64,000 nt of DNA from an uncultured virus (IMG/VR IMGVR_UViG_3300042898_002817) (Duplodnaviria; Heunggongvirae; Uroviricota; Caudoviricetes), in IMG/VR virus record IMGVR_UViG_3300042898_002817; one strand, given 5' to 3'. The notes beneath the pieces are model-generated. The model was not told the origin of the DNA and ran no database searches. It worked only from the letters and a program-made list of their open reading frames with translations. Of the stretch, positions 14,914 through 58,991 are shown in pieces (position 1 is the stretch's first letter; each line of letters begins with the position of its first letter). Position numbers and translations under genes: made by a program.

Positions 14914-14948
14914 TTTATTACTCCTATATTTTTTATATAAATATGATG

Positions 14949-15931: not shown

Positions 15932-18871
15932 TTATCCTGTTACAGCCCATCCTTTTGCTGTTGCAATTGAGGGAGTATCATTTGCTGCACCCCAGTTACC
16001 AGTAACTGTAATGGTTTTTCCTGCACCTGTTGCAGATGCATTAGTATAAATTTCATTTAATGCTGTTGAATCTAAATTATTGCTTGAAACATCAAAACTA
16101 GCATTCATTCCGGTGGCGCGCATTCTTCTTAAGTTACCGGATCCAAAGTTGCCAATAGTTGTACTAGAAGTCATATTTAATGCTGGGATTTCAGTAGTGC
16201 CGCCGTTTTGAAACATGTTGGAGAAACTGGTTCCACGAGATGTATCCATTAATGGAATATTTTTTAGTGACGAACAGTTAGCAAAACAACTACCAAAATC
16301 AGTTACTTTGGATGAATTAAAGCCACCAATATCCATTAATGTAGTGCAATTTGCAAACAGAGAAGCAAAAGATGTAGCTACTGCAGTATCTAAATATGGT
16401 ACTGATTTTAATGCAATGCATGAACCAAACATGTTAGATATACTAGTACATTTAGTTAAATTAAAAATTGGTATAGTTGTAAGTGTTGTACAAGACTGAA
16501 ACATACCTGATACAGTTGTAGCTTGGCCTAAATCATAAGCCGGGACTTTTGCTAAATTAGTACAACTTGAAAACATGAAACTAAAATCAGTTCCTTTAGA
16601 TGTATTAAGAAATGGTGCTTCTCTAATACCAGAAGATTGAAACATGGACGCAAAACTTGTTGCATTAGAAGTTTCAAGTGCAGGAACTGATACTAAATTA
16701 GTACAATTTGTAAACATATTAGTACAGTTTGTGAGCCTTGCAAAATTTAATTTTGGTATAGATCTCAATGATACCGCACCATTAAATAAATTTGTTCCGG
16801 ATGTCACATTTATTGTATCAAACCATGGTATGGTTACTAAACTCCTGCAAGTTTGAAACATTGAAGTTATATCTGTTAAACTACGTGTGTTTGTAAAAAT
16901 TGGACATGTTTTAAGTGATAAACAGCCGCTAAACGTAGTTGACATAGTTGAATTTGCACTTAGATCCAACGTTGATGGTAATGATTCTAATTGGTAACAG
17001 TTGTTGAATGCAGTAGACCATGAACTAACTTTTGAAGTATTACCAATAAATTTAACTTGTTTTAAACTATAGCAGTTTTGCCATGTTGCGATGAAACTAG
17101 TATTGTTACTAACATTTAGTGGAGGATGTTTTTCTAAAGAATAACAATTAGCAAATGTACTATTATAGGTTGTAACAGCACTACTAAATGTAGCATTTAT
17201 TTTTTGTAGTGTATAACATGCGTTAAAAGTATTAGACCAAGATGTTACATTTTGAGAATTTAATAGTGTTATTTCTTTAAGGTTATTGCAACCGTTAAAC
17301 ATGGTTTGAGCATTATTTGCATTAGTAAAATCTAATGGAGGGAGTTTTTGCAAATTAGGACATGTTTGAAACATGTTGGAAAAAGTAGTACCGTTTGTTG
17401 TATAAAAGGATACAACTTCTACTAAACTTCTACAATTTGCAAACATGCTAGTAAAATTCGTTATGCTATTTGATCCGGAATACTCAAATGTTTCTAATTG
17501 CCCTGGGTGTAAAATAGTTCCGGTGCTTGACAGCACTATTGACGTAACTAGATTGCCGGCCATTTTAATTGACTTCCAGCTATTATTGCTACCGTTAACT
17601 AAGGAACCTGTTGGTAGTGTTGGTCGAGGGCTAAAATTGACAGAACTAAAACTTGTAGCACTGCCTGATAAAGTTACAGTAATTAAAGCTGGTTTGTATA
17701 AATCAGTTACTGAGTATATTGAGCTTGTTAAGGCTGCAAATGAAGCAGTTGTATATTGTTTTGACCCAGTTGCAGCTGAATTATAATTGTTTGAAGTACC
17801 ATCTCCCCAATTAACTGTGTATCCACCACCTCCATTTGTTGAAATTTGTAATCCAACAAAATTTGAGTTATTGTTATAAACACCATACCATGCCACTATT
17901 TGGTTGTTAGATATTGCAGGAAGTGGTGGCAAACCGCCGCTTATGTTAATTGAGGGTGCAGTTGAAAAACGTGATGAACCAGATGTAACAGATATTGTTG
18001 ATACTGTGTTTCCGGATAATACTGCAACTGCTGATGTGTCTTGTAGAGCTGCTCCTTGTATTTGTACGGTTGGTGGAGTAGTATATCCACCACCACCATT
18101 TATAACACCAATAGAGCCTATTCCGGCTATAAGAGATGATGATATAACTGCTCCGGTTCCAGTAGGACTTGTTATTGTTAAAGTTGGGTTTGAGGTATAT
18201 CCTCTACCACTACGTAATACAGGTACTAGTACAGCTTGTGTTCCTCCAGCTGCTAACCCTCCGCCACTTACTGTTATTGTTGGAAAAGATGTAGAAATAT
18301 AATTGCTACCTGATGTTGTAATAGTAACACCTGTTACCTTTCCATTTGTTATTGTAGCTGACCCAGTTGCGGTTTTAAGGGGTCTCCAAGTAGGATTGAT
18401 TGTAGGGGCTGAAAAAGATAATGTAGGTGCTGTTGAGTATGGTCCTCCTCCATCTGCTATAATTACATCTTGGATTGAGTACAAGGGAACAACTGCAGTT
18501 ATAACACCGCTACTGACAGTAGATACATATGCTGCAGCATCTTGGCCTCCACCATTAGAAAAACTCATTGTAACGTTTAAATTACTAGCAGGATATCCTG
18601 TACCGCCCGTATATGTTATCATGTTGGCTATTGACCCGTTTGATAATGATGCGGTAGCAATCGAGCCAGAACCTCCTCCTGTTGCAGACCCGGTAAAAAG
18701 TGGGGTGGTATCCTTATAAGGAGGACTTGACATTAGATTAGTATCAGTAGAATATGCATCATTTTGTGTAAAAAATCTAGTATCAAAATTTTTGTTTCTA
18801 GATATTATACCTTGATTATCAAGTCCTAGTGTTGGATTACCTATATATCCATTATTGTCTTTTTTAGCCAT
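15932..18871 (-). CDS. Tail fibre/adhesin with Gly-rich N-terminal repeats and BspA/DUF285-like leucine-rich repeats
   Basis: GxGYTxxPT repeats, then many ~22-aa MFxxCxxLxxIPxLDTS repeats. Confidence 0.75.
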   Translation of the reverse strand: MAKKDNNGYIGNPTLGLDNQGIISRNKNFDTRFFTQNDAYSTDTNLMSSPPYKDTTPLFTGSATGGGSGSIATASLSNGSIANMITYTGGTGYPASNLNVTMSFSNGGGQDAAAYVSTVSSGVITAVVPLYSIQDVIIADGGGPYSTAPTLSFSAPTINPTWRPLKTATGSATITNGKVTGVTITTSGSNYISTSFPTITVSGGGLAAGGTQAVLVPVLRSGRGYTSNPTLTITSPTGTGAVISSSLIAGIGSIGVINGGGGYTTPPTVQIQGAALQDTSAVAVLSGNTVSTISVTSGSSRFSTAPSINISGGLPPLPAISNNQIVAWYGVYNNNSNFVGLQISTNGGGGYTVNWGDGTSNNYNSAATGSKQYTTASFAALTSSIYSVTDLYKPALITVTLSGSATSFSSVNFSPRPTLPTGSLVNGSNNSWKSIKMAGNLVTSIVLSSTGTILHPGQLETFEYSGSNSITNFTSMFANCRSLVEVVSFYTTNGTTFSNMFQTCPNLQKLPPLDFTNANNAQTMFNGCNNLKEITLLNSQNVTSWSNTFNACYTLQKINATFSSAVTTYNSTFANCYSLEKHPPLNVSNNTSFIATWQNCYSLKQVKFIGNTSKVSSWSTAFNNCYQLESLPSTLDLSANSTMSTTFSGCLSLKTCPIFTNTRSLTDITSMFQTCRSLVTIPWFDTINVTSGTNLFNGAVSLRSIPKLNFARLTNCTNMFTNCTNLVSVPALETSNATSFASMFQSSGIREAPFLNTSKGTDFSFMFSSCTNLAKVPAYDLGQATTVSGMFQSCTTLTTIPIFNLTKCTSISNMFGSCIALKSVPYLDTAVATSFASLFANCTTLMDIGGFNSSKVTDFGSCFANCSSLKNIPLMDTSRGTSFSNMFQNGGTTEIPALNMTSSTTIGNFGSGNLRRMRATGMNASFDVSSNNLDSTALNEIYTNASATGAGKTITVTGNWGAANDTPSIATAKGWAVTG

Positions 18872-19757: not shown

Positions 19758-21449
19758 TTATGTTTGTATCCAATCATTTGATGGACGAAATTTCATTATC
19801 CAATACTCCGGATATTCACTACTTTGCTGGTATGCATGTCCTAATACTCTGACATAGTCCCCTGAGCCTGTTGGGGAAGTTGTTGTCATAAACTTCCCGT
19901 CGCCGCTAGTAGGATATATTGGTAATCCATGGTCTAAATTATCAACTATAGGAGACTCATTGTGATAAGCTGAACTTGACAGTATAGTAATTGTTCCCTC
20001 TAACAAAATAGAGCCGGGACCGGGGACATATGGTATTGGTTGCGGGTCTTCAACTGGTGGTACTTCAAGACAAATTCCTAACAATTTAGTAAGACTGTTT
20101 TGAGGTCCGGCCGGATACCATACTCCGTCAGTCTTTAAGTATACTAAATCATATAATGTTACTGTCTCATCTACGGCTCCTATGATAACTTCACCTGCGT
20201 AGTTAGCCGTATTGCTAAGTATTGGAGTATCTACAAAGTTTTGTTGTACACCCAAATCAATTTTTGATTTATAGTAATAACTTGATGAAATAGCATATCC
20301 ATTATCGTCTACGTTCCAGTTTAAGGTAGGGTTGCCAAGTGTATTGGTCAGAGTTCTGTTTTCCCAATCAACTGACGTATAATCAGTCGAATCCTTCAAA
20401 TCTCTATAGTACCAACGTACGGAATTGATTCCAACAGAATCATACAATATTCTATTGTTCCATTCAACAGACTGTGTTGGAGGAGTTTGAGTATCATATA
20501 GTAATCGATTATTCCAATCGATTGATGTCTTATTACGGTCATCTAGTACTGTTCGATTATCTGTATTGAGTGAGCCTGTTTTTTTATTTTGTATAACTAT
20601 TAAGCTTCCAGTTATTTGTACTAGAGATCCTGAAGCAAAGATTAAGTTTGATCGAAGTGCTCCAAGTCCTGTTCCATTGCCTAGAATAAATGCGGATTGT
20701 GCTGAAGAGGAGAGGTTGTATTGACCTTGTACGTGTTGGTAAAATCCGTTAGCTACTGTACCAAGTCCTTCTGCGTGTGAACCGGTGCCAAATGCTGTTG
20801 CACCATAACCTTCTGCGTGTGAATAGTCTCCGATTGTAGTTGTACCATATCCTTCTGCGTGTGAGTAATTGCCATTTGCATTTGTACCAAACCCTTCTGC
20901 GTGTGAACCGGAGTCAAATGCCGTTGTATAATAACCTTCTGCGTGTGAACCGGGGCCTTTTGCAGTTGTATAATAACCTTCGGCGTGTGAATGTGATCCT
21001 GATGTTACTGTATTAAAACCTTCTGCGTGTGAATGTGATCCTGATGTTATTGTACTATAACCTTCTGCGTGTGAATAGTCTCCGTTTGCAGTTGTTTGCT
21101 CTCCCTCTGCGTGTGAACTTTGTCCGTTTGCTGTTGCACTATAGCCTTCTGCGTGTGAGTAATTTCCTATAGCATTTGCATAAAGTCCTTCAGCGTGTGA
21201 ACCTAATCCAGCTGCTGATGAATTATTGCCTTCTGCGTGTGAATAATCTCCTGTTGCACCTAAATCTATTCCTTGAGCATGAGCAAATAGGCCTGATGCT
21301 AAAGATGCAGATGCTTGATTGAATGATCCAGTTACACCTAATGATCCATTAATTTGAGCTGATCCGGTTACAACTAAACCTGCAGCGGCTGTTACTGAGT
21401 TTAATACGGCATCAGAGCCTGAGACTATGACTTTTTTCCAATTTGGCAT
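19758..21449 (-). CDS. Tail fibre protein with YadA-head-like SHAEG repeats
   Basis: About twelve 14-aa SHAEG repeats followed by S(V/I)xWxNRxL repeats. Confidence 0.75.
   Translation of the reverse strand: MPNWKKVIVSGSDAVLNSVTAAAGLVVTGSAQINGSLGVTGSFNQASASLASGLFAHAQGIDLGATGDYSHAEGNNSSAAGLGSHAEGLYANAIGNYSHAEGYSATANGQSSHAEGEQTTANGDYSHAEGYSTITSGSHSHAEGFNTVTSGSHSHAEGYYTTAKGPGSHAEGYYTTAFDSGSHAEGFGTNANGNYSHAEGYGTTTIGDYSHAEGYGATAFGTGSHAEGLGTVANGFYQHVQGQYNLSSSAQSAFILGNGTGLGALRSNLIFASGSLVQITGSLIVIQNKKTGSLNTDNRTVLDDRNKTSIDWNNRLLYDTQTPPTQSVEWNNRILYDSVGINSVRWYYRDLKDSTDYTSVDWENRTLTNTLGNPTLNWNVDDNGYAISSSYYYKSKIDLGVQQNFVDTPILSNTANYAGEVIIGAVDETVTLYDLVYLKTDGVWYPAGPQNSLTKLLGICLEVPPVEDPQPIPYVPGPGSILLEGTITILSSSAYHNESPIVDNLDHGLPIYPTSGDGKFMTTTSPTGSGDYVRVLGHAYQQSSEYPEYWIMKFRPSNDWIQT
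20765..21285 (-). repeat. 42-bp-period coding tandem repeat (SHAEG)
   Basis: ccttctgcgtgtga recurs every 42 nt, in frame. Confidence 0.9.
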
Positions 21450-21461
21450 ATTATATCTTAA

Positions 21462-21528
21462 TTATGTTGCGGTTAGATACATACACTAATGCCGTGTGTG
21501 TGCCTACTTCCTTGCGGCCAACAACAAG
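21462..21528 (-). ncRNA. Candidate structured 5' leader (three-way junction) of the SHAEG fibre gene
   Basis: GC-rich island in an AT-rich intergenic gap; UGUUG/CAACA closing stem, CC-GCAA-GG hairpin, long imperfect third stem. Confidence 0.55.
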
Positions 21529-21548
21529 TTATTTATTATAAATATGTG

Positions 21549-21731
21549 TTATCGAGATTTCTTTGGTTGTGGTGCAGACTGCATGTTTGCAATTTGTTGA
21601 ATCTCGGATTCTAATTTGATTTGCAATGCAGCTAAAAACTGTGCATCTTTTCCTGCAATAGTAATAACATCTAAGGATTGTCGCAATGTCTGAATTTCAG
21701 GCAATGTTAGTTCAATTGAAAAAATATTCAT
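21549..21731 (-). CDS. Small hypothetical protein
   Basis: 60 aa; its LDVITIAG segment resembles LKDVTITG in the neighbouring gene. Confidence 0.65.
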   Translation of the reverse strand: MNIFSIELTLPEIQTLRQSLDVITIAGKDAQFLAALQIKLESEIQQIANMQSAPQPKKSR

Positions 21732-21737
21732 GTTTGT

Positions 21738-21929
21738 TTATTTGGATTGTTCTATATATTGATTTTGTAATTTAACTACAAGATTATAAAACATTTCAAC
21801 TTGCGAACCGGTGATTGTTACATCTTTTAAAGAATTTAAAACAAATTCTAGTTCTTCTTGAACCAATTGATTTTTTGTTTCAACCACCGGCTGCTTTGAT
21901 TCGCCTATTATTTTAGAAAGAATACTCAT
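21738..21929 (-). CDS. Small hypothetical protein
   Basis: 63 aa; SD AAAGG. Confidence 0.65.
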   Translation of the reverse strand: MSILSKIIGESKQPVVETKNQLVQEELEFVLNSLKDVTITGSQVEMFYNLVVKLQNQYIEQSK

Positions 21930-21959
21930 TATAACCTTTTTTAGTTAATATATAGAATT

Positions 21960-23159
21960 TTATGCGTATATCCAAATGTCTAGGGCATTATCTGTATATA
22001 TTGCTCCTGCTTGTACAAATTCACCTGTAGTTGGTTTTGTAGTGTGAGCAGCTTGTGTAAATACATAGCCTGCGAATGCTGAGTTACCATTTGTTCCAAT
22101 AACAATTGCGTTGGTTGAGTCTAATAATCCGTTTTGGTAACCCCAACGATCTGTATCTGCATCAAAACCAAATGCAATATTTCCTGCCGCATCAGAACCT
22201 CTATCAATTATAATACCGCCATCACTTGCTGCTGCAGACCCGGATGCTAATATAATAAACTTATCTTCAACTAATAATTCTGTAGTGTTTATTTGTGTAG
22301 TTGTTCCATTAACAAATAAGTCTCCAGTTATTGTAGCATTTCCTGACACTGTAACATGGCCTAGGGAGGCTGTTCCTGAAACGTTTACTGCAGATAATGT
22401 TCCAACACTAGTAATTGCTGTTTGTGCTGCACCAGTAACTGTAGCTGCCGTAGTTGCAGTTGATGCATTGCCTGTTAAAGCTCCGACAAAAGTAGTTGAA
22501 GTAACTGATGATAATCCTGTTAAAGTAGTTGTTGCGGCTGCACCCAACGTTAATGTTTGTGATCCTAATAATACTGAAGCATTAGCTAAATTAGCATTTG
22601 TAATGCCGGCTGTTCCAGATAAGTTAGAATTAGTTAACCCAGTGACTTGAGATGATCCTGAAACAATGCCTGATGGTAATTGTGCACTACCACTAAAAAC
22701 TCCACTACCATTTAATACTTGTGCTGAACTAGATACAACTGCAATACCGGCAAAGAATGATCCACTATGAATTGACGTTCCGGCTAATATTTGAGAAGAT
22801 CCTGAAACAATGCCGGCAGGTAATTGTGCTGAACTAGATACAATATTGGGTGGAATGCTTGTCAATTGGGAATAAGTTATTTGAGAAGACCCAGATACTA
22901 CTGGGATACCGGCAAAGAATGATCCACTATGAATTGTCGTTCCTGCTAAATGTGCAACTATTTGTGCTGAACTTGTTACTGTACCTGCTGCTGGTATTAG
23001 GCCTGATAAACCAGAACCATTACCGGAAAACGACCCTGTAAATGATCCAGTTAAAGATGTAGTTGCTTGTGTTGTACCAATAAATTGGTTTGAACCAACT
23101 TGTAATGATGATAGATGGGCGCTACTACCCGATACTATTACTTTTTTCCATTCTGCCAT
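21960..23159 (-). CDS. Tail fibre-like protein
   Basis: MAEWKKVIVSGS start; VSGSSQ/VSSSAQ repeats; GDLFVNGTTTQINTTELLVEDKFI fibre motif. Confidence 0.7.
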   Translation of the reverse strand: MAEWKKVIVSGSSAHLSSLQVGSNQFIGTTQATTSLTGSFTGSFSGNGSGLSGLIPAAGTVTSSAQIVAHLAGTTIHSGSFFAGIPVVSGSSQITYSQLTSIPPNIVSSSAQLPAGIVSGSSQILAGTSIHSGSFFAGIAVVSSSAQVLNGSGVFSGSAQLPSGIVSGSSQVTGLTNSNLSGTAGITNANLANASVLLGSQTLTLGAAATTTLTGLSSVTSTTFVGALTGNASTATTAATVTGAAQTAITSVGTLSAVNVSGTASLGHVTVSGNATITGDLFVNGTTTQINTTELLVEDKFIILASGSAAASDGGIIIDRGSDAAGNIAFGFDADTDRWGYQNGLLDSTNAIVIGTNGNSAFAGYVFTQAAHTTKPTTGEFVQAGAIYTDNALDIWIYA

Positions 23160-27149: not shown

Positions 27150-27175
27150 TGTTCTGTTTCCTTTTTATATAAATA

Positions 27176-27841
27176 TCAATACTTTTCATTTAGTAGAGCC
27201 AAAATTTCATTTAACGCTACGTGTCGATGATTATCTGTTAAAATAATTTCATTTACAAATTGTGATGGTTTTAGTTTAGGGACTTCATGTACTGCTGAAT
27301 CATTATTAAATTTTAAATCTACTTGATATCTATCGCCCGTTAAAATCATGATACTGCCTTTACCTAATCTAGATAATACCATTTGCAGTTGTTGTTTTGT
27401 TAAATTTTGAAATTCATCAACTATACAAATTGCATTATCAAATGTTCTTCCTCGAAAATGAGCTAATGATACTAGTTCAATACTTTCTTCTTTTTCCATT
27501 TTATCTAACAGTTCTGGTTTATTATAAACCTTACGCATGTTGCTACGAATCGGAACTAACCATGGATCCATTTTTTCTTGCAATGTTCCTGGTAAGAATC
27601 CATTATCTTCATTTGATACTGTTGGTCGAGTCATGATAATTTTATCAATTCGTCGTTTAAAAAACATGTCCAATGCAATTTGAACTGCTAACAATGTTTT
27701 GCCAGATCCAGCTTTACCTAATATAAAATTAAACGGAGTTTCTATAATTTTTGCTTTTGCTAGTTTTTGTTCTTCTGATAATGTTACTGAAAATTTAATA
27801 TCAGTTTTTGGTGGAGTTTTATCCGAATTTAGTGTTGTCAT
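27176..27841 (-). CDS. phoH: PhoH-family ATPase
   Basis: GKAGSGKT, GFLPG, RGRTF, DEFQN, LSRLG, GDRYQVD. Confidence 0.95.
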   Translation of the reverse strand: MTTLNSDKTPPKTDIKFSVTLSEEQKLAKAKIIETPFNFILGKAGSGKTLLAVQIALDMFFKRRIDKIIMTRPTVSNEDNGFLPGTLQEKMDPWLVPIRSNMRKVYNKPELLDKMEKEESIELVSLAHFRGRTFDNAICIVDEFQNLTKQQLQMVLSRLGKGSIMILTGDRYQVDLKFNNDSAVHEVPKLKPSQFVNEIILTDNHRHVALNEILALLNEKY

Positions 27842-36637: not shown

Positions 36638-36688
36638 AATTAATATATTTTAATTATAAATATAACTTGTTTTAGAACAATGCAAATT

Positions 36689-58301: not shown

Positions 58302-58952
58302 TTAAATTGTTGCTGTCGTTGCTTTTTTAACTGTTATACGCATAGTGACAGTTCCACCGGTTTCGTTAGCTATAATAGTTACTGTTGCAGTTTTATCTTC
58401 AACCATTTGTGTTTTAGCTGTAACTTTAAACTCAAATCCAGAAACAGCTACACTTTGAGCATCTTCATTATCTCCAATAAATCTAGCAGTTGTAGGCATA
58501 ATATTATTTTGTAACGCCTTAGTAACAATAATATCGCATACACTTGAATCAGATAATATTGCAGAATATCCTAAAGTGGCATTTCCTCCTCTAAAATTAC
58601 TAGTGTCAGGAGAAATAATAGTGCTATTACCAGGTGCATTCAATGTAATAGAAGTATTACCAACATTGATAACTGGTATATTTTGTGTTTTTTTAGGCAA
58701 TGTAATTAATTTATATTTTAATGCTTGAGTTTCATCCGGGATTGCTTCAATTATCGGCATTCCTTCAATGATTGCACCATAATATGCTGTACCTAATGGG
58801 TGATCTGAATTCCATAATGAATAATCAACTTCATCATCTCCTAATGCAAATTGCGTAATATTAAATTCTCCAGCTCCGCGGGCTAAAAGTTCTCGTCCTT
58901 TAATTGTTAAAATTGCGTCGACTGTAACGCTTGAATTATTTAAATATCCCAT
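58302..58952 (-). CDS. Baseplate/tail-collar-like structural protein
   Basis: AILTIKGRELLA....FNITQFALGD resembles the start of P2 gpH-type fibre-attachment domains. Confidence 0.6.
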   Translation of the reverse strand: MGYLNNSSVTVDAILTIKGRELLARGAGEFNITQFALGDDEVDYSLWNSDHPLGTAYYGAIIEGMPIIEAIPDETQALKYKLITLPKKTQNIPVINVGNTSITLNAPGNSTIISPDTSNFRGGNATLGYSAILSDSSVCDIIVTKALQNNIMPTTARFIGDNEDAQSVAVSGFEFKVTAKTQMVEDKTATVTIIANETGGTVTMRITVKKATTATI

Positions 58953-58991
58953 AATTTTTTATCCTTTAATATAAATATATACATGTAAAAT

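Follow-up and report, generated by a model that had tools for sequence, protein, structure and literature searches.

A long folded leader in front of a tail-fibre gene

The DNA considered here is a 64,000-nucleotide (nt) stretch from an uncultured virus of the class Caudoviricetes (IMG/VR record IMGVR_UViG_3300042898_002817), which in its full length is referred to as the window. On its minus strand lies a tail-fibre gene, and the leader in front of that gene contains a small RNA three-way junction that is the topic of this report. A preliminary description, made from the sequence alone, regarded the leader as a riboswitch-like RNA that binds a ligand or a protein and controls a receptor-binding fibre, and it pointed to a loose likeness to the glnA glutamine riboswitch. 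The leader sequence that it quoted is indeed present on the minus strand, between the box ATATTTATA and the ATG, and its general remarks about this sequence also hold. The leader is unusually long, with 88 nt from box to ATG as compared to 13-27 nt, and in one case 41 nt, at the other box-led genes of the window, and it is rich in G and C (48% G+C in the junction versus 33.6% in the window).

The minimum free energy (MFE) folds of the 99-nt leader and of the 66-nt core are both three-way junctions, as drawn in the preliminary description, with an outer stem UGUUGU-U-GG/CC-GCAACA, a hairpin CC-GCAA-GG, an AAG joiner and a long third stem with C.A mismatches. These helices are referred to as P1, P2 and P3 and the strands that join them as J1/2, J2/3 and J3/1 (Table 1). 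ARAGORN found no tRNA or tmRNA gene in window positions 21000-22000.

According to Pfam, the product of the fibre open reading frame (ORF) has YadA-head-like repeats, and its relatives in the cultured Flavobacterium phage immuto, described below, are annotated as tail spike or tail fibre-like protein. On the other side of the leader, the stop codon of an ORF of 60 amino acids (aa) is located just 5' of the box (21549-21551, minus strand).

Table 1. Features of the fibre-gene leader and its surroundings (window positions)
Feature	Position	Strand	Basis or remark
Candidate late promoter-like box ATATTTATA	21537..21545	minus	ATATTTATW match; putative promoter
Ten A/T-rich bases between box and P1	21526/21537 interval	minus	Sequence
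Junction core, 62 nt	21526-21465	minus	MFE fold and comparison
P1 5' strand UGUUGU, bulged U (21520), GG	21518..21526	minus	MFE fold, double-sided changes
P2 hairpin CC-GCAA-GG	21510..21517	minus	MFE fold; length and loop variable in relatives
J2/3 junction strand AAG	21507..21509	minus	AAG in 156/157 unique cores
P3 hairpin: UAG/CUA base, GC...GU, 2-nt AU bulge or internal loop, long stem	21474..21506	minus	Covariation
P3 apical loop GGCAUUA	21487-21493	minus	GGCAU part (21489-21493) invariant in alignment A1
J3/1 junction nucleotide A	21473	minus	A in 157/157 parsed unique cores
P1 3' strand CC-GCAACA	21465..21472	minus	Covaries with 21518-21526
A/U-rich linker, 15 nt, P1 to start codon	21450..21464	minus	Sequence variable in relatives
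AUGCC, start codon and first two bases of the proline codon	21445..21449	minus	Complementary to P3 loop GGCAU; putative pairing
Tail-fibre gene, 563 aa, N-terminus MPNWKKVIVSGS	19758..21449	minus	ORF; ATG at 21447-21449
Small ORFs of 60 and 63 aa immediately 5' of the RNA	21549-21731 and 21738-21929	minus	ORF list

Relatives, covariation and the link to the fibre start

An exact 19-mer from the 5' half of the element occurs in 36 IMG/VR stretches, and in 35 of these it belongs to the element; the whole element, the box and the ATGCC start are kept in all 35, and the flanks are different. A pattern for the 3' half matched at least 120 rows, which gave 84 unique 138-nt versions among the matches listed. 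A gapped pattern in which GUGGGC replaces GUAGGC gave 102 unique versions, again among the matches listed, and brought out another subfamily, which is more diverse and has a P3 that is short and varies greatly. When all of the fetched loci were run through a parser, at least 235 unique cores of 45-69 nt were obtained in 500 instances; the IMG/VR phage contigs that have the element ahead of an MP[NS]WKK... fibre gene number in the hundreds. Left out by eye as chance matches were L093 (unrelated and GC-rich), L290 (the next ORF begins with something other than MP[NS]W) and L548 and L605 (an ATGCC start is lacking after the match).

The element is also present in a cultured phage, Flavobacterium phage vB_FspM_immuto_2-6A (NC_055915.1, 160,410 bp; immuto for short), the host of which is Flavobacterium sp. 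LMO8 from the Baltic Sea. It is located at 137885-137948, in front of gp052, a 'putative tail fiber-like protein', and the gene order is the same as in the window. This copy was reached only via the N-terminus of the fibre protein; when the leader itself was compared by blastn with 50,697 records of cultured phages, nothing matched, and immuto was missed as well. The public runs that contain the window's own sequence are lake and freshwater metagenomes, and the nearest record (G001) begins within the fibre gene, without the leader. A scan of bacterial genomes with the window-type 19-mer gave five hits, all of them proteobacterial, the sequence of which was not read; absence from bacteria therefore applies to window-type sequence only, as the more numerous UGG/CCA type (see below) was never scanned there. 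Apart from these hits, the RNA is seen only in phage contigs and before one gene family.

From 5' to 3' the members of the family have the box TATTTAT, P1, P2, AAG, P3, A, the P1 3' strand, a linker and AUGCC, and P1 mostly begins 5-11 nt after the box. Figures for 157 unique cores come from a parse that omits 13 anchors that the parser could not fit and seven at locus edges. The outer helix of P1 is mostly 5-8 bp long (3-4 bp in 15 of the 157 cores) and its outer pairs vary, the first being U-A, U.G, C-G or A-U and the second A-U or G-C. A 1-nt bulge follows (U in 95, A in 51 and C in 11), then G-C or A-U, and then G-C; the inner pair is changed from G-C to A-U in nine of the 157 cores. P2 is built as CC...GG, with 2-8 bp, a variable stem length and a free loop, which is GNRA in 123 and UNCG in nine of the 235 unique cores; its third pair is C-G in 64, U-A in 28 and U.G in two. 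J1/2 is empty, AAG forms J2/3 in all cores but one, and J3/1 is an A in each parsed core, a few U variants having failed the parser. The pairs of P3 are, in order, U-A, A-U or G-C, G-C, G.U and C-G, followed by a variable hairpin, and there is a 2-nt bulge (AA, AU or UA) on the 3' side. Its second pair divides the family into a UAG/CUA type (A-U, 71 cores) and a UGG/CCA type (G-C, 86 cores). For the long form of P3, a second register, with GC/GU and then the 2-nt bulge, fits the whole family; three sequences with paired C-to-U and G-to-A changes favour the register of the preliminary description. In one subclade (L343, L258, L267, L279, L284, L298 and L348, at about 620-680 of each locus) an extra hairpin, AUAUC-loop-GAUAU, stands directly before the junction; it uses the 5' strand of P1 and may compete with P1.

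The structure is under selection in all three helices. For example, RNAalifold on 79 window-type cores returned five P1 pairs with 22, 25, 3, 7 and 8 sequences changed on both sides. Alignment A3 was made with MAFFT from 84 of 85 unique short-P3 cores (seven long-P3 rows and L285 were not included and the truncated L255 was dropped), and its structure was supplied by us; 96.1% of its cells are paired versus 85.3% after shuffling, and its covariation score is 0.313 versus 0.120. None of 500 shuffles reaches either value, and when the registers are slid by 1-3 columns the pairing is 24-48% and the scores are 0.04-0.06. The loci of alignment A4 (90 distinct sequences) were picked solely by the coding pattern of the fibre N-terminus; 96.8% of its cells are paired, 12 of the 18 pairs are changed on both sides and 0 of 500 shuffles do as well, in an alignment that was fitted to the model and hence leans towards the structure. 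Because the sequences are kin, these shuffle counts are not probabilities. The UAG/CUA and UGG/CCA combinations swap at the base of P3, also where the search pattern left the 3' side free, and the upper P3 pairs covary. The conservation and covariation in relatives that the preliminary description had named as a test were found, and in all three helices. Over 204 unique cores there are 3509 Watson-Crick, 431 G.U, 34 A.C and 42 other pairs, and the large excess of G.U over A.C means that what folds is RNA with the sense of the gene rather than an antisense transcript or double-stranded DNA.

The RNA and the start of the fibre gene are strictly linked. A scan with the coding pattern MPNWKK..SG.. 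gave at least 120 loci, and the RNA is upstream in 100 of 100 and 20 of 20 of them (model R2, E<=4e-7); in three it stands some 110 nt more distant from the start, with an additional conserved leader in between. From the RNA side, a pattern without box or start listed 120 loci, of which 114 have an MP[NSA]W start within 45 nt. The remaining loci comprise one start at 118 nt, two MPNY ORFs that resemble HNH ORFs, a different ORF in L524 and two presumed chance matches. When 77 loci were fetched by similarity to the fibre body, the RNA was before 7/7 MP[NSA]W starts. The element is a single-copy one. The window has one copy with either model, R1 or R2; R1 finds one copy in four of five phage genomes rated complete by CheckV and misses the diverged copy of G006, and R2 finds one copy in 5/5 genomes, immuto included. 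In the fibre protein itself, conservation is limited to about 20 residues at the N-terminus, after which the sequence is hypervariable. The element is a conserved, covarying, structured RNA that occupies the 5' leader of the tail-fibre gene, as the preliminary description held.

Several loci display variations on this arrangement. In a clade of L376, L427, L433 (junction at about 22-91, ATG at 201) and L539 the junction is located about 110 nt upstream of the ATG. A second conserved leader fills the interval; two hairpins are predicted in it, and one of these adjoins the start codon. The fibre of L068 (1399-5451) has 1350 aa, with dozens of tandem units of about 14 residues (..SHAEG..) after the same conserved N-terminus, and illustrates how greatly fibre bodies can differ while the leader stays constant. 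ORFs of the homing-endonuclease type lie exactly between the RNA and the fibre gene in L112 (1574-1972, plus strand), L249 (360-605, minus strand; the contig is that of L492), L229, L569 and L524. The L112 ORF has Pfam HNH hits, those of L229, L249 and L569 are alike by eye, start with MPNY and keep the first three fibre codons, and the L524 ORF has a GIY-YIG-like motif, also read by eye. In L249 the end of the HNH ORF is overlapped by the fibre's own ATG. The invariant DNA of the RNA and the fibre start may be the target of these ORFs.

L112 and L249 likewise have the two small ORFs that precede the RNA, and immuto has similarly sized ORFs at this place. The two ORFs of the window gave no hit in Pfam or PHROG, and in the ESM Atlas the clusters closest to them are viral hypothetical proteins without a name. 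The window also encodes a 979-aa protein with DUF285 repeats at 15932-18871 on the minus strand, two genes after the fibre gene.

The box and the start codon

The late-promoter-like box (ATATTTAT) that precedes the element is conserved upstream of the RNA in relatives. The window has 23 matches to the pattern ATATTTATW, of which 22 fall on the gene strand; shuffled sequences average 13.3 on both strands, with a maximum of 22, and 0 of 100 reach 23. Examples on the minus strand are 58970-58978, 36655-36663, 27168-27176, 14936-14944 and 929-937. The box is often followed by WTAAA and looks like a phage late promoter; most copies stand 13-27 nt before an ORF start, in many cases that of a structural gene. 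Its core, when reverse-complemented, gives the T4 late promoter TATAAATA.

A G+C-rich, terminator-like hairpin whose U tract ends a few bases before the box is present in 22 of the 87 unique upstream regions, a layout of terminator and then promoter. No terminator precedes the window's own box, and so read-through transcripts are likely there as well. The distance from box to P1 (5-11 nt) and that from P1 to AUG (6-24 nt) add up to about the box-to-ATG distance that is usual in other late genes, and the junction has the look of a closed module that was put into a normal leader. Judged by these sequence features, the box would be a late promoter and the junction the extreme 5' part of the fibre mRNA. 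Metatranscriptome runs X19-X22 consist of contigs that cover the leader and cross the box; such contigs cannot show 5' ends, strand or level, and DNA in the libraries is possible. As for the second test named in the preliminary description, nothing pointed to transcription starting 3' of the structure, with contigs in which transcript ends are not visible.

Flavobacteria, like other Bacteroidota, start translation without Shine-Dalgarno pairing. Nevertheless, AGGA or GGAG precedes the ATG by 8-14 nt in many late leaders of the window (such as those at 58952, 27149, 14913 and 11442).

Two subfamilies have hairpin loops that are complementary to the start region. In the window subfamily (94 unique leaders) the long P3 ends in the loop GGCAU(A/U)A, and GGCAU is the complement of AUGCC; loop and start are both invariant in the 84 relatives of alignment A1, and with the variant loop GGUAU the pairing is kept by wobble. 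In the second subfamily (28 unique leaders with 14 stem and loop combinations) it is P2 that is lengthened, and it has a conserved loop with UGGCA, the complement of UGCCA. The proline codon is CCA in 28/28 leaders of this UGGCA group versus 117/151 and 69/94 in the other groups, and GGAG is present in 28/28 of these long-P2 leaders (loci such as L428, L493 and L514). Anti-start loops are thus present in 122 of 273 unique leaders. The quartiles of the spacing from junction to AUG are 21-22 nt in the GGCAU group and 17-18 nt in the UGGCA group, and a looser 14-17 nt in the short-P3 group. If one that is due to the fixed end of P2 is left aside, GGCA is the commonest 4-mer of the variable hairpin parts (148/267 unique leaders, 30/132 distinct P3 inserts and 13/104 distinct P2 inserts). 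The energy of the loop-start duplex is -5.3 kcal/mol, or -6.6 kcal/mol with the flanking A-U. Covariation of the loop nucleotide after GGCAU with position -1 was considered and rejected, as mismatched cases exist.

We consider the anti-start loops in two different arms to be the strongest functional clue, and we read them as having been added to the conserved junction at least twice; the loops would presumably pair with the start. P1 is A/U-rich, bulged and marginal, and the MFE fold of the immuto copy does not include it. The linker from P1 to AUG is not conserved, and there is no terminator-type platform; the anti-start loops and the competing hairpin of the one subclade may be what couples the fold to expression.

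A new RNA family and its possible roles

The comparison with Rfam that had been suggested was run, and no family matched. With Rfam 15, the whole window gave 0 matches at the gathering score. At E<=10, window positions 21300-21700 gave only two chance hits, both on the other strand and neither of them glutamine, and 16 related loci (E<=5) gave nothing at the element and no glutamine hit. The glutamine-I model itself (RF01739, gathering threshold 35 bits) found nothing at the element in 5/5 complete or near-complete phage genomes. A weak glutamine-riboswitch-like match that contains CGGAAGUAG lies elsewhere in one 174-kb relative genome, not at the element (G003:C1:35137-35200, which is L243:1501-1564, minus strand; 15.1 bits, E 0.17 to 0.8, below threshold).

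Glutamine-I riboswitches occur in aquatic and phage metagenomes, and the string likeness to glnA noted in the preliminary description is real. The Rfam glutamine consensus is UCAuCccc..gggGaCGGAAGUAgGc..gCcGAAGGA and includes CGGAAGUAgGc, and ten letters of the window, GGAAGUAGGC, are identical to it and stand at the same transition from P2 to P3. Both RNAs are small three-way junctions in 5' leaders with P2 and P3 hairpins, and the helix order is the same; the structure line of Rfam reads P1, P2 hairpin, eight unpaired, P3 hairpin, four unpaired and P1. However, in the element the two G of the string are paired in P2, and the UAG is Watson-Crick paired with CUA, a combination that covaries with UGG/CCA. 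The GAAG(GA) strand that would be the loop E partner of AGUA is absent, J3/1 is a single A, and the 3' strand reads CUA-A-CC or CCA-A-CC. The downstream gene encodes a tail fibre, a context that is not one of nitrogen metabolism. P1 is variable here, unlike in glutamine-I riboswitches, in which conserved P1 pairs and a base triple (C1:G59; G22>G2:C58) form the ligand site, according to PMC6698751. By these comparisons the element is not a member of the glutamine-I family, and that it might be a diverged one is the least credible of all the explanations. The interpretation in the preliminary description holds in part, for a conserved cis-leader RNA but not for membership of the glnA family; the partner may be a small ligand or a protein.

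The element can also be compared to other systems. Phage translational operators include the pseudoknot in the leader of T4 gene 32, the RegA sites and the MS2 coat-protein hairpin. They are, as is proposed here, cis-acting leader structures at structural or late genes to which a protein binds and sets translation. They differ in being hairpins or pseudoknots with known protein partners, whereas the element is a three-way junction with a proposed partner, in phages of Bacteroidota largely without Shine-Dalgarno-led initiation. Hammerhead ribozymes, which are common in phage DNA, are likewise three-way junctions with variable stems and short junction strands (here 3 nt in J2/3 and 1 nt in J3/1). 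The element differs in lacking the hammerhead core CUGANGA ... GAAA and any Rfam hit, and its junction strands are those given above. The put RNAs of HK022 are promoter-proximal, cis-acting, phage-specific folded RNAs too, but they consist of two stem-loops and are not tied to a start codon. SAM-II/V and preQ1-II riboswitches hide the start region in a pseudoknot, and the proposed loop-start pairing would be the same kind of occlusion by a pseudoknot with the aptamer itself; here the pairing is a predicted one in two subfamilies only. Both riboswitch groups are mentioned in PMC6698751.

In the full-text literature, as far as it was accessible (most subscription journals were outside the scope), no such motif or structured leader tied to a phage receptor-binding protein was found. 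A term search in the paper on phage-encoded S21 (PMC9723584) gave no mention of motifs, untranslated regions or promoters, and the part seen of a genome-language-model preprint on non-coding RNAs had nothing on the element. The element has the trait of a riboswitch class, namely a conserved aptamer-type fold with covarying stems in a leader. It is a new RNA family of a known kind, the cis-acting structured leader RNAs, and its context, a receptor-binding fibre in Bacteroidota phages, is unusual.

How would this RNA act? The reading that we prefer, with somewhat less than even confidence, is that this new, small three-way-junction family in the 5' leader of the fibre mRNA acts in cis on the start of fibre translation. 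Transcription from the late-promoter-like box would put the junction into the 5' leader of the fibre mRNA of immuto-like Flavobacterium phages. The core (the P1 bulge and GG/CC, P2 CC/GG, AAG, P3 URG/CYA, GC/GU, the 2-nt A-rich bulge and the A) would form a fixed fold that most likely binds a factor in trans. The favoured candidate is a phage or host protein, possibly the conserved N-terminal part of the fibre itself. Closing of the weak, A/U-rich P1 would then shorten the unstructured A/U-rich landing pad that Bacteroidota ribosomes need, and in the window subfamily the apical GGCAU may in addition pair with AUGCC and hide the start codon; the effect would presumably be repressive. As we read it, the business of the element is the start codon and the conserved junction is the core device. 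A protein-bound translational operator is preferred because the RNA is seen only in phage contigs, before one gene that is conserved solely at the adjacent N-terminus.

Several observations weigh against this interpretation. The folding energy of the leader is ordinary compared to shuffled sequences (z 0.03 for 99 nt, with 107/200 shuffles as good; z -0.27 for 66 nt, with 72/200), so that one sequence alone proves nothing and the comparison with relatives decides. In that comparison the scans overlap in their sets of loci, the instances are not all separate contigs, the counts are among the matches listed, and the sequences are related, so that the counts behind the enrichments do not stand for independent events. 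There is no anti-start loop in the largest subfamily, whose P2 and P3 are short and to which immuto belongs, and therefore pairing with the start cannot be the core function. The pairing is also beyond the reach of a covariation test, because GGCAU and AUGCC are both invariant. A conserved expression platform was not found, nor was a candidate for an RNA-binding protein, to which the two small ORFs before the RNA gave no lead. Finally, the transcription start is a predicted one, and RNA-library contigs, which cannot show ends, run across the box, perhaps by read-through or as DNA.

Of the other explanations, a true riboswitch is unlikely; its junction would bind an ion or a small metabolite, and P1, which would close depending on this ligand, would adjust fibre translation to the condition of the host. 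The anatomy is like that of an aptamer, with variable, covarying stems around a small invariant junction. P1 is weak, the element stands directly before the start codon and shares its 10-nt junction string with the glutamine-I consensus, and one subclade has the hairpin that competes for the P1 5' strand. However, known riboswitch classes are not confined to phage contigs and to one structural gene as this element appears to be (with bacteria scanned for the window-type 19-mer only), the conserved unpaired nucleotides are few, and neither an Rfam aptamer match nor a conserved expression platform was found. Given the restriction to phages and to one gene family and the lack of such a platform, a translational operator is more likely than a metabolite riboswitch of the classical sort. 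Also unlikely is a virus-specific riboswitch class, a minimal aptamer of flavobacterial phages that senses a host metabolite or ion and sets fibre production. If it were true, phages would match the loading of virions with fibres to the physiological state of the infected cell, and the shared GGAAGUAGGC junction strand would make a third scaffold possible for a ligand of the amino-acid type.

It is rather improbable that the element is a passive 5'-terminal stabiliser or processing signal, which would shield the long fibre mRNA from 5'-end-dependent decay without switching. Such a role would agree with P1 beginning so shortly after the box, at or near the 5' end, and with the separate transcript indicated by a terminator and then a box in 22/87 upstream regions. 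A plain hairpin would suffice for it, though, and yet among 157-235 unique cores the junction nucleotides and the identities of pairs hardly change; the window's other late genes have a box without such a fold, and anti-start loops arose in two different arms. We give a smaller chance to an action on the transcribing polymerase, as with the HK022 put antiterminator RNAs, or to a new small self-cleaving ribozyme that trims the fibre mRNA. The position, just after a promoter-like box and ahead of a long gene with many repeats, and the invariant core of the three-way junction, as in hammerheads, would suit these roles, but no known ribozyme family matches, CUGANGA was absent on reading, and a single site per genome with a constrained spacing to the start codon fits translation better. 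Very improbable is conservation at the level of DNA, as a target of recombination or of a homing endonuclease that bounds an exchangeable fibre cassette on its left, without any function as RNA. The leader and about 20 codons are conserved while the fibre bodies downstream are hypervariable, and HNH-family ORFs and the GIY-YIG-like one are inserted exactly here in a few contigs. Against it stand compensatory changes that keep the pairing in three helices, loops that switch between GNRA and UNCG, and the excess of G.U over A.C, the last of which would not be seen at a double-stranded DNA site.

The element is very small, displays textbook covariation and is abundant in lake and other aquatic viromes, and its occurrence in a cultured pair, the phage immuto and Flavobacterium sp. 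LMO8, makes it testable at once. If a ligand exists, it would be that of a new aptamer class. To our knowledge, the control of late translation by Bacteroidota phages is poorly known, and an RNA that gates a start codon in these phages would open this question.

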